Shown piece after piece: positions 24,866-26,482 of a DNA stretch of 32,000 nucleotides. The stretch lies in NCBI GenBank assembly GCA_965224465.1, contig OZ245049.1:1560001-1592000 (forward strand), read 5' to 3'. This stretch comes from Flavobacteriaceae bacterium (GTDB taxonomy: Bacteria > Bacteroidota > Bacteroidia > Flavobacteriales > Flavobacteriaceae). The translations under genes and the position numbers were made by a program. Position 1 is the first letter of the stretch, and each line of letters begins with the position of its first letter. The notes under the pieces were generated by a model. It saw only the letters and a program-made list of their open reading frames with translations, had not been told where the DNA came from and did not search any database.

Positions 24866-26482
24866 TTAGTCTAAGGGATTGTTTTTAGTATAAGTTTCTA
24901 TCAAATCATCTATAAAATAAAGAACATCACCTCTTTTGTATTCTTTTGGGTAATACATCCCGTTTAATAGCAAGGCAGGCGTAAAGTTAAGTTTATTTAT
25001 AGTACACCATTCCTTTTGTTTTTCTAGGCTTGTTTGATAGCTGTTTTCTGAGTGTTTATTCCATTTTTTAAGCCAAGAATCCGCATCCAAAACACCATAA
25101 ATATCGTGTAGGGCTTCTAAGCACACAGACTCTCCTTTACTATGGTACAAATAAAGTAGTTGAGAGGCAATAAGTAGAGAGCTAGCTTCTGCTGTGTTGG
25201 TTTGAATATTAAAACGTATGGTTATTTGTACATCCTCATATTCTTGTTGCATAATTTTTTCAAGAATACTGTGCATTTCTTTACAATGCCCGCACATTGG
25301 ATTGGTGATGAGTAATATATTTAATGAAACATCCGTCCTTTTATGTCCAAAAACTATTTCTTGAATGTTAGGTATAGCAGTATCAAGGACAGGTGTGGTT
25401 TGGAGCATTGCATTAAATAATTTAAAATTACGTTTAAATTTCATATACTCTAGTTTAGTCATTTTTAATTCATAAAAATGTTTCAAAAGAGGCTGTAGAA
25501 AGAACCAGATTAAGGTAGAAACACCAAAACCTATACATAAGAAACCAATGAAATAAGTATCTATAGTGAACAGATTATTCACAAAGAGAACAGCATATAT
25601 CACAGTAAATAATTGGAACCAAAGTACTCCAACTATCGATAAACAGAGGGGACACCACACTTTTACAATTATCCATTGATAATATACTGAATAAAAACTA
25701 AACGGAATAACACATACACTTAATATAGCCATGGCGTTAAATTGTAAATTCGAATTACTGCTACTTATAATAAATAATAACCAAGAAACAATGAGACTAA
25801 AAAAATAGATAACACCTACATCGCTTAAATTTATATTCTTATAAATAGTAGCCCCTTTCGAGTTTAGAACAGCATCACAACTTAATTTTTTACTAGCCCC
25901 AGCACAAAACTTATCGCCAATAACTGAATTTAAGCCAAGTTCATGCTGAACTATAATCACACTAACTCCGAACCCTATAACTGAGAAAAGAAAATGTAAT
26001 TGCTGAAAAAGACTTGCTGATTCCTTTAAAAAGTAAGCAGAAACACCAACTACAATTATTCCTAAAAGAATCGTATTTAAATGTTTAATTTTTGTTGTTT
26101 CAAATACCGTTATTTCAGCGTTATTTTCTACAATAATAATAACACCAGACCACAAATTTAAAAATGATTTTTTTGATATTTCTTCCTTTTTTTTATCCTG
26201 TGTTGTGAGTATAATCATATCGTCTAGCTGTTCAACAATTACAAGAATTTCTTTTTTATTTTTATTTAATACAGCTAGAAACACACTTGGTAATTCTTTT
26301 AAACTATCATAGGTTATAGGTACGTCAAGTGCAGCATTATTAATGTTAAAATATGAAAACAAATCTGTAACACAATTCAAACTGGGATAATGTGGATGTG
26401 TTAGTAATTGAATTTCTATTTCCTTGGAATCTATCAAAATATTATTCTTCGAAAGAAACGATGCTATCAAAAAGTGAATCAT
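24866..26482 (-). CDS. VKOR-family membrane oxidoreductase fused to a C-terminal DsbA/thioredoxin-like domain and an N-terminal degenerate C39-like domain
   Basis: 538 aa. Residues ~1-125 align by eye with the C39 domain of the ABC exporter (LPSVFLAVLNKNKKEILVIV versus LPCILHWNKNHYVVLYKI) but lack the catalytic Cys and His. There are six hydrophobic helices. The VKOR hallmarks are present: loop Cys pair CAGASKKLSC and membrane CXXC WCPLC. The C-terminal domain has NPMCGHCKEMH and a FTPALLLNG cis-Pro block. Confidence 0.75.
   Translation of the reverse strand: MIHFLIASFLSKNNILIDSKEIEIQLLTHPHYPSLNCVTDLFSYFNINNAALDVPITYDSLKELPSVFLAVLNKNKKEILVIVEQLDDMIILTTQDKKKEEISKKSFLNLWSGVIIIVENNAEITVFETTKIKHLNTILLGIIVVGVSAYFLKESASLFQQLHFLFSVIGFGVSVIIVQHELGLNSVIGDKFCAGASKKLSCDAVLNSKGATIYKNINLSDVGVIYFFSLIVSWLLFIISSSNSNLQFNAMAILSVCVIPFSFYSVYYQWIIVKVWCPLCLSIVGVLWFQLFTVIYAVLFVNNLFTIDTYFIGFLCIGFGVSTLIWFFLQPLLKHFYELKMTKLEYMKFKRNFKLFNAMLQTTPVLDTAIPNIQEIVFGHKRTDVSLNILLITNPMCGHCKEMHSILEKIMQQEYEDVQITIRFNIQTNTAEASSLLIASQLLYLYHSKGESVCLEALHDIYGVLDADSWLKKWNKHSENSYQTSLEKQKEWCTINKLNFTPALLLNGMYYPKEYKRGDVLYFIDDLIETYTKNNPLD

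Follow-up and report, generated by a model that had tools for sequence, protein, structure and literature searches.

Dedicated oxidoreductases are a familiar component of some bacteriocin operons, as in the case of BdbA and BdbB of sublancin and PedC of pediocin, BdbB being a member of the DsbB family and not of the vitamin K epoxide reductase (VKOR) family. Bacteroidetocin clusters depend for full activity on a thiol oxidoreductase and a separate membrane protein of five helices (PMC6671954). As for the VKORs, a 2026 paper describes the bacterial, plant, and mammalian enzymes as facing outward and inward-facing VKORs as known only from Crenarchaea; these crenarchaeal paralogues reportedly support cytoplasmic disulfide formation in Escherichia coli (Hibender et al., 2017 Microbiology 163:1864). 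Here, we analyzed 32,000 nucleotides of a Flavobacteriaceae bacterium (GenBank assembly GCA_965224465.1, contig OZ245049.1, positions 1,560,001 to 1,592,000; this whole stretch is referred to as the window), in which a minus-strand open reading frame (ORF), 24866..26482, encodes a 538-residue fusion of a C39-like domain, a six-helix VKOR part, and a DsbA-like domain. In NCBI, the protein goes by no more specific name than “vitamin K epoxide reductase family protein,” and literature searches for VKOR together with C39 or bacteriocin returned no description of a C39-VKOR-DsbA fusion or of its topology; the gene family is already annotated, but the meaning of its architecture is undescribed. The reading that we favor, with moderate confidence, is that of an inward-facing oxidase that would bind the leader of neighboring precursor peptides through its dead C39 domain and insert disulfides into them before they are cleaved and exported by the adjacent exporter.

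The three-part architecture had been proposed in a preliminary description of this DNA, and Pfam, AlphaFold, and Foldseek all bear it out. In Pfam, the VKOR profile (PF07884) matches residues 164 to 294 with 54.7 bits (cutoff, 27.5), and the Peptidase_C39 profile (PF03412) matches residues 17 to 122 with 24.0 bits (cutoff, 22; E value, 3.6e-5). A thioredoxin match (PF00085) at residues 393 to 435 remains below the threshold in the window protein (19.2 bits), and the DsbA-like family PF13462 is recorded for relatives of the fusion. An AlphaFold model built from 117 homologues (predicted local distance difference test [pLDDT], 91.8; predicted template modeling score [pTM], 0.82) shows an alpha/beta N-terminal domain (residues 1 to 118), six long helices (residues 132 to 154, 158 to 181, 219 to 240, 244 to 273, 278 to 300, and 309 to 350), and, at the C-terminal end, a thioredoxin fold with a helical insertion; the six hydrophobic helices counted in the preliminary description are in agreement with both this model and hydropathy. 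The top Foldseek matches of the model in the PDB are ScsC (4gxz; E value, 3e-6), followed by BdbD and DsbA, and PCAT1 is among the further matches, as is the peptidase domain of ComA (5xe8_A; target-normalized TM-score, 0.65; root mean square deviation, 3.4 Å over 120 columns). Profile searches of the PDB with the full-length protein retrieved the Synechococcus VKOR structures 4nv6, 4nv2, and 3kp9, as well as 6wv9 and, for the DsbA-like part, 1z6m and 6nen, whereas nothing relevant came up when the membrane core was searched against the PDB as a single sequence.

All the redox motifs quoted in the preliminary description are present in the ORF, namely, CAGASKKLSC (residues 193 to 202), WCPLC (276 to 280), CGHC (397 to 400), and TPALLLNG (501 to 508), and their key residues—C193, C202, C277, C280, C397, C400, T501, and P502, along with S208—are invariant among the 117 relatives. 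The VKOR signature is complete, with a loop cysteine pair, a serine six residues past the second loop cysteine, and a CxxC that opens helix 4. The DsbA-like hallmarks are likewise present, that is, a CxxC, the cis-proline T501-P502, and helices inserted between strands (residues 434 to 495). Given this invariance of the VKOR signature, the DsbA-type CxxC, and the cis-proline, the oxidase part of the fusion looks fully functional.

The N-terminal domain, in turn, resembles a C39 peptidase that has lost its catalytic machinery. Compared with the C39 domain of the neighboring exporter by BLASTP, it gave only a weak partial match, and a PDB profile search with the domain alone was marginal (PCAT1; E value, 0.24), so that profile-profile comparison was needed to address its C39 homology. 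Using hhalign, the family profile of the domain matched the genuine C39 domains of the exporters encoded alongside the fusion with an E value of 4.8e-5, which became 3e-5 when the alignment was longer. C39 homology was therefore detected by Pfam, hhalign, and Foldseek, and the profile comparison reproduced both blocks on which the preliminary description had based its block-by-block likeness (LPSVFLAVLN with APLPCILHWN, and IIIVE with VLIVD; in the fusion, LPSVFLAVLNKNKKEILVIV occupies residues 64 to 83 and IIIVE residues 115 to 119). The same description had paired YPSLNC (residues 32 to 37) with KDCGPTC and thereby placed a proline at the position of the catalytic cysteine; this pairing is wrong, as it is one helix out of register, and PSLNC aligns with exporter residues 47 to 52 (SSLLGL, in the third helix). 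The catalytic cysteine of the exporter, Cys15, maps to residue 1 (Met1) of the fusion, where the chain starts, and the segment that bears the oxyanion glutamine and the catalytic cysteine is absent. Exporter His88 lies opposite Ile79, so the histidine was rightly called lost, and the counterpart of exporter Asp104 is D96, a residue that lacks conservation across the family. With cysteine, histidine, and conserved aspartate all missing in the alignment to C39 domains, the N-terminal domain is, judging by its sequence, without the C39 catalytic triad, that is, an inactive peptidase. Near the lost active site, the 117 relatives share a motif of their own, E21..Q25..S-H29-P-x-Y-P33-S34, of which E21, Q25, H29, P33, and S34 are invariant. 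Together with the transmembrane (TM) helix that follows it, TM-A, the domain aligns with low confidence with the exporter C39 domain on through exporter TM1.

We also looked for the N-terminal domain in other architectures. This search gave 67 hits, all of them short, and the eight sequences and two loci inspected among them were either fragments from contig ends or copies of the fusion with a frameshift; these hits therefore provide no independent evidence for the domain as a free cytoplasmic protein. One of the frameshifted copies is found in Fulvivirga maritima (CP089980.1; locus L081, 6001-7618), where a 1-nucleotide frameshift inside an A8 run splits the fusion gene. The frameshift site coincides with the Lys-rich junction between the N-terminal domain and TM-A; the frameshift could stem from slippage or from an error in sequencing, or it could mark the gene as a pseudogene. 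A second copy (locus L082) is more decayed.

TM-A is absent from canonical fusions of VKOR to a thioredoxin (VKOR-Trx fusions). A Lys-rich segment precedes it, and a turn of three residues leads from it to VKOR helix 1. Its best 17-residue Kyte-Doolittle window has a family mean of 2.21. We considered whether TM-A might instead be an “elbow” helix at the surface and rejected this, since its hydrophobicity equals that of the other five helices and its hydrophobic moment is low. With six helices, the N-terminal domain, the C193/C202 loop, C277/C280, and the DsbA-like domain must therefore all lie on one side of the membrane. The preliminary description had come to the same arrangement and had taken the shared side to be the periplasm; the even helix count supports the first part of this claim, but the charge pattern argues against the second.

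To assign the side, we applied the positive-inside rule to the Lys and Arg residues in flanks and loops over the aligned family (n = 117). The active-site side carries 16.1 Lys+Arg (density, 17.6%) and the three opposite loops 1.07 (4.8%), with a bias toward the active-site side in 117 of 117 family members and no exceptions. The exporters encoded in the same loci (n = 57), with their topology assumed from PCAT1 structures, carry 19.4 Lys+Arg inside and 1.68 outside, and the rule therefore holds in these organisms. As a second control, we used five-helix canonical VKOR-Trx fusions (n = 43), relatives of the solved Synechococcus enzyme gathered in an exhaustive search that was seeded by one truncated protein, itself found via a Synechococcus VKOR fragment; they carry 11.1 Lys+Arg on the cytoplasmic side versus 3.8 on the periplasmic side, with the bias in this direction in 43 of 43. 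Loops 2-3 and 4-5 together hold 4.7 Lys+Arg (minimum, 3) in the canonical fusions versus 0.55 in the C39-VKOR-DsbA family. Such a swap of charges between homologous loops is the pattern expected for an inverted topology. Further, the fusion has no signal peptide, residues 2 to 12 forming the initial helix of the C39 fold, and it carries 3.3 Lys+Arg in the segment before TM-A and 5.8 in the 21 residues past TM5; Lys/Arg-rich flanks of this kind hinder the translocation of adjoining domains. If the low-confidence alignment of TM-A with exporter TM1 holds, TM-A would have inherited its in-to-out direction. Since the charge bias, the absent signal peptide, the Lys/Arg-rich flanks, and the TM1 alignment agree, we infer that the catalytic face is likely cytoplasmic, that is, that the orientation of the enzyme is inverted.

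Several points weigh against this orientation and against our reading of the N-terminal domain. The bacterial cytoplasm is reducing; the positive-inside rule is reportedly broken by eukaryotic (endoplasmic reticulum-type) and viral VKORs; the two periplasmic TlpA-like lipoproteins encoded in the window cluster could point to periplasmic thiol chemistry; and the C39 similarity of the N-terminal domain is weak in sequence (24 bits; hhalign probability, 68 to 73%). The lipoproteins would also fit a canonical, outward-facing VKOR, in which both the C39-like and the DsbA-like domain would be periplasmic, the peptides would be oxidized after leader removal, and the C39-like domain would bind some partner, be it the core, the leader once freed, or something else. 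Such an orientation matches that of the bacterial VKORs in the literature, is compatible with the even helix count, and recalls the thiol oxidoreductase and five-helix membrane protein needed in bacteroidetocin clusters. Yet the charge bias would then run the wrong way in every member of the family, opposite to every canonical fusion; a folded N-terminal domain of 130 residues would have to be exported without a signal peptide and with a Lys-rich flank, and the C-terminal domain would have to follow behind its own run of positive charges; and the leader, the natural ligand of the C39 fold, is removed on the cytoplasmic side. On this evidence, we regard an outward-facing enzyme as unlikely.

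The genomic context of the family points to its likely substrates. When one genome per species was scanned, at least 366 loci turned out to encode a relative of the fusion, nearly all of them in Bacteroidota, with many in Tenacibaculum, Lutibacter, Lacinutrix, and Aquimarina and others in marine Bacteroidales metagenome assemblies, Labilibaculum, and Fulvivirga. We counted neighbors in 80 fetched loci, 67 of which have at least 6 kb downstream of the fusion gene. Among these 67, a C39-ATP-binding cassette (C39-ABC) exporter is encoded downstream on the same strand in 54 and an HlyD adaptor in 52. Genes for peptides with a double-glycine leader number 439 in 71 of the 80 loci, up to 20 per locus and all on the same strand as the fusion, with the nearest precursor starting a median of 93 nucleotides past the stop of the fusion gene. 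The precursor cores have a median length of 39 residues, of which cysteine makes up 13.4%; they contain 4, 6, or 8 cysteines in 96% of cases and an even number in 96.6%. Among proteins of at least 120 residues encoded within 10 kb, the exporter recurs in 58 of the 80 loci and HlyD in 54, compared to 20 for the next family. This tight linkage with peptide genes, exporter, and HlyD suggests an oxidase dedicated to these peptides. Alternatively, the fusion could be a general oxidase of the envelope, or serve in immunity or regulation, and neighbor the peptide genes without acting on them. This would be in line with the bare NCBI family name, but it would explain neither the short, same-strand distance to the nearest precursor nor the recurrence of exporter and HlyD far above any other family, and the fusion to a C39-like domain is meaningful only where leader peptides are involved; we consider this explanation very improbable.

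Some of these loci show additional features. In 20 of the 80 loci, a gene for a 227-residue response-regulator-like protein lies on the same strand as the fusion gene, about 0.8 kb upstream of it, and 15 of the 80 encode an ∼880-residue TPR-rich protein upstream; both may be cluster regulators. Tenacibaculum loci (L018, L036, L040, L044, and others) hold up to 20 precursors each, with near-identical leaders and hypervariable cores of 4, 6, or 8 cysteines, and some core types, such as RKMCDTNKD..CAE.YC, are shared between species.

A cytoplasm-facing oxidase would act on these precursors in an order in which, as we infer, oxidation precedes cleavage. First, the dead C39 domain would hold a fresh precursor by its leader, the 4 to 8 cysteines of the core would be oxidized by the CxxC of the DsbA-like domain (C397/C400), and this domain would be reoxidized by the VKOR loop cysteines C193/C202, with the electrons passing via C277/C280 to menaquinone. 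The folded, leader-bearing peptide would then be handed to the neighboring exporter, whose active C39 domain would cut after the Gly-Gly and which would export the product with the HlyD adaptor. The cavity of PCAT1 has been described as spacious enough to hold a small protein in its folded state. The presence of an HlyD adaptor suggests an export route that may skip the periplasm. The preliminary description had noted a paradox, in that the ABC exporter normally removes the leader on the cytoplasmic side; as the leader exists only in the cytoplasm, a cytoplasmic catalytic face would resolve this paradox.

Of these steps, leader docking by the dead C39 domain is plausible because it fits the tight linkage of the family to Cys-rich peptides with double-glycine leaders. 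An inward-facing oxidase could also use its dead C39 domain to dock on the exporter (for instance, at the exporter's C39 site) or on some other partner instead of the leader. The low-confidence alignment of the N-terminal domain and TM-A with the C39-TM1 portion of the exporter, which suggests an origin from an exporter N terminus, and the exporter gene that is nearly always adjacent both speak for such docking, and in PCAT1 this N terminus packs against the transmembrane domain. However, the invariant residues E21, Q25, H29, P33, and S34 look like a ligand site and not like a generic packing surface, which makes docking on the exporter unlikely in our view and leaves leader binding as the preferred role of the domain.

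The cluster in the window (Table 1) follows the PCAT-type pattern, with Gly-Gly leaders, an adjacent C39-ABC exporter, and an adaptor, and the exporter has an intact triad (Cys15/His88/Asp104, invariant residues).

Table 1. Features of the fusion gene and its peptide cluster (window positions)
Feature	Position	Strand	Evidence
Degenerate C39-like domain, residues 1-122	26117..26482	-	Pfam PF03412, hhalign, Foldseek, invariant residues
Extra transmembrane helix TM-A, residues 132-154	26021..26089	-	AlphaFold helix, hydropathy, low-confidence alignment with exporter TM1
Four-helix VKOR core, residues 158-300 (C193, C202, Ser208, C277-P-L-C280)	25583..26011	-	Pfam, PDB profiles
TM5 (311-329) and Lys/Arg-rich continuation, residues 309-350, conserved KFKRNF	25433..25558	-	AlphaFold helix
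DsbA-like thioredoxin-fold domain, residues 365-534 (C397-G-H-C400, T501-P502)	24881..25390	-	Foldseek, PDB profiles, PF13462
Precursor 1: leader MKKLKLNLEGAKVLSKVQQRSINGG, then 50-residue core with 6 Cys	24533..24760	-	ORF
TlpA-like thioredoxin lipoprotein, DUF4369 and WCAPC motif, accessory	23301..24410	-	Pfam
C39-ABC exporter, PCAT type	21032..23218	-	Pfam C39 (112.7 bits), ABC_membrane, ABC_tran; NCBIfam bacteriocin-exporter models
Precursor-like ORF, core with 6 Cys	20701..20949	-	Leader as in precursors
Second TlpA-like thioredoxin lipoprotein, accessory	19030..20634	-	Pfam
Precursor 2: leader common with precursor 1, 50-residue core with 4 Cys	18456..18683	-	ORF
HlyD-type periplasmic adaptor	15531..16832	-	NCBIfam TIGR01843 (E value, 4.3e-19)

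In the precursor-like ORF, ATA replaces ATG, 6 nucleotides are deleted, and the leader reads IKKLKLEGAKVLSKEQQRSINGG; it is either a pseudogene or a gene with a noncanonical start. Precursor cassettes in the window seem to spread via local duplication: an exact 300-nucleotide duplication (18666-18965 and 20932-21231), extended by a further stretch of 96% identity (19009-19081 and 21276-21348), comprises the 3′ end of the exporter gene, an intergenic element, and a precursor start, and an 83-residue exporter fragment ORF at 18766-19017 is a product of this duplication. A 58-nucleotide element lies upstream of all three precursor genes (18708-18765, 20974-21031, and 24785-24842; 97 to 100% identical). 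Neither an Rfam match nor a significant fold was obtained for it, and it may be a promoter or an operator.

The two TlpA-like lipoproteins were considered as core parts of the system and rejected, as their relatives occur in only ∼8 of the 80 loci. A role in immunity or in disulfide proofreading is possible, the family usually supplying periplasmic reductants. A 528-residue predicted lipoprotein (16819-18405, minus strand) resembles the adjoining TlpA-like protein, has lost the CxxC (IIHFWSYNDKITPS), and has relatives in 3 of the 80 loci. Adjoining HlyD, a 475-residue ORF (14089-15516, minus strand) is not recognizable as TolC, has no family match, and has no relatives among the 80 related loci. 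A few kilobases beyond the far end of the cluster, at 9287-11300 (minus strand), are an HTH_38 ORF, possibly an IS30-type transposase, and an IS3-family transposase with an integrase core. The rest of the window encodes housekeeping proteins (GAPDH, PFK, MDH, and a Mur ligase), PorV, and a GldJ-like protein, a gene content typical of a chromosome from Bacteroidota (GC content, 32.6%).

The fusion family could represent the first natural disulfide machine of bacteria that faces the cytoplasm, an inverted VKOR-DsbA that carries a dead C39 leader-recognition module, folds disulfide-rich peptides in the cytoplasm with the leader still on, in the manner of a maturase of ribosomally synthesized and posttranslationally modified peptides, and serves hypervariable peptide arrays across Bacteroidota, a description to which we give about even chances. 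If true, a widespread inward-facing VKOR-DsbA would change the picture of bacterial VKORs as outward-facing only, the introduction of disulfides would count as a modification guided by the leader, and the gain of disulfides by peptides exported across both membranes would be explained. The fetched loci also hold hundreds of unexplored peptide cores with 4 to 8 cysteines, and one self-contained enzyme that oxidizes leader-fused cores would, again if true, be a tool for producing disulfide-rich peptides in the bacterial cytoplasm.

Several known systems share parts of this arrangement. The C39-like domain of HlyB-type exporters, which is devoid of the catalytic cysteine, is reported to dock substrate in the cytoplasm. 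It differs from the domain described here in that it is located within the exporter itself, keeps the histidine, and binds an unfolded RTX substrate with a C-terminal signal and not an N-terminal Gly-Gly leader. With the active C39 peptidases of PCAT1 and ComA (4RY2, 6V9Z, and 5XE8), the N-terminal domain shares the fold, as seen by Foldseek, the gene neighborhood, and the kind of leader; in contrast, these enzymes have a Cys/His/Asp triad and an oxyanion glutamine, whereas the fusion begins at the cysteine position and has isoleucine in place of the histidine. The bacteriocin operons with dedicated oxidoreductases (bacteroidetocin, sublancin, and pediocin) likewise encode disulfide-forming proteins beside a Gly-Gly-leader peptide and a C39-ABC exporter, but these oxidoreductases are separate proteins, have no domain for docking a leader, and presumably work outside the cytoplasm.

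For the VKOR part, the closest solved relative is the Synechococcus VKOR-Trx fusion (3KP9, 4NV2, 4NV5, and 4NV6; profile E value, 0.0014), which has the same four-helix core, loop cysteine pair, serine, and CxxC, is connected by a fifth helix to a partner of thioredoxin fold, and uses quinone as the electron acceptor. It differs in having five helices, no N-terminal domain, and a plain thioredoxin-like partner instead of a DsbA-like one, and it is a general oxidant without a link to peptide genes; fusions of this type carry their Lys and Arg residues in the N-terminal tail and loops 2-3 and 4-5 and have a periplasmic active site. With respect to orientation, the nearest parallel is VKORi of Aeropyrum pernix, which is not known to be fused to a DsbA-like or C39-like domain. 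As reported by Hibender et al., it is a natural VKOR with cytoplasmic catalytic cysteines, the orientation proposed here for the fusion, and it can drive cytoplasmic disulfide formation with a signal-less DsbA; it differs in being crenarchaeal and in serving general cytoplasmic disulfide formation in a hyperthermophile.

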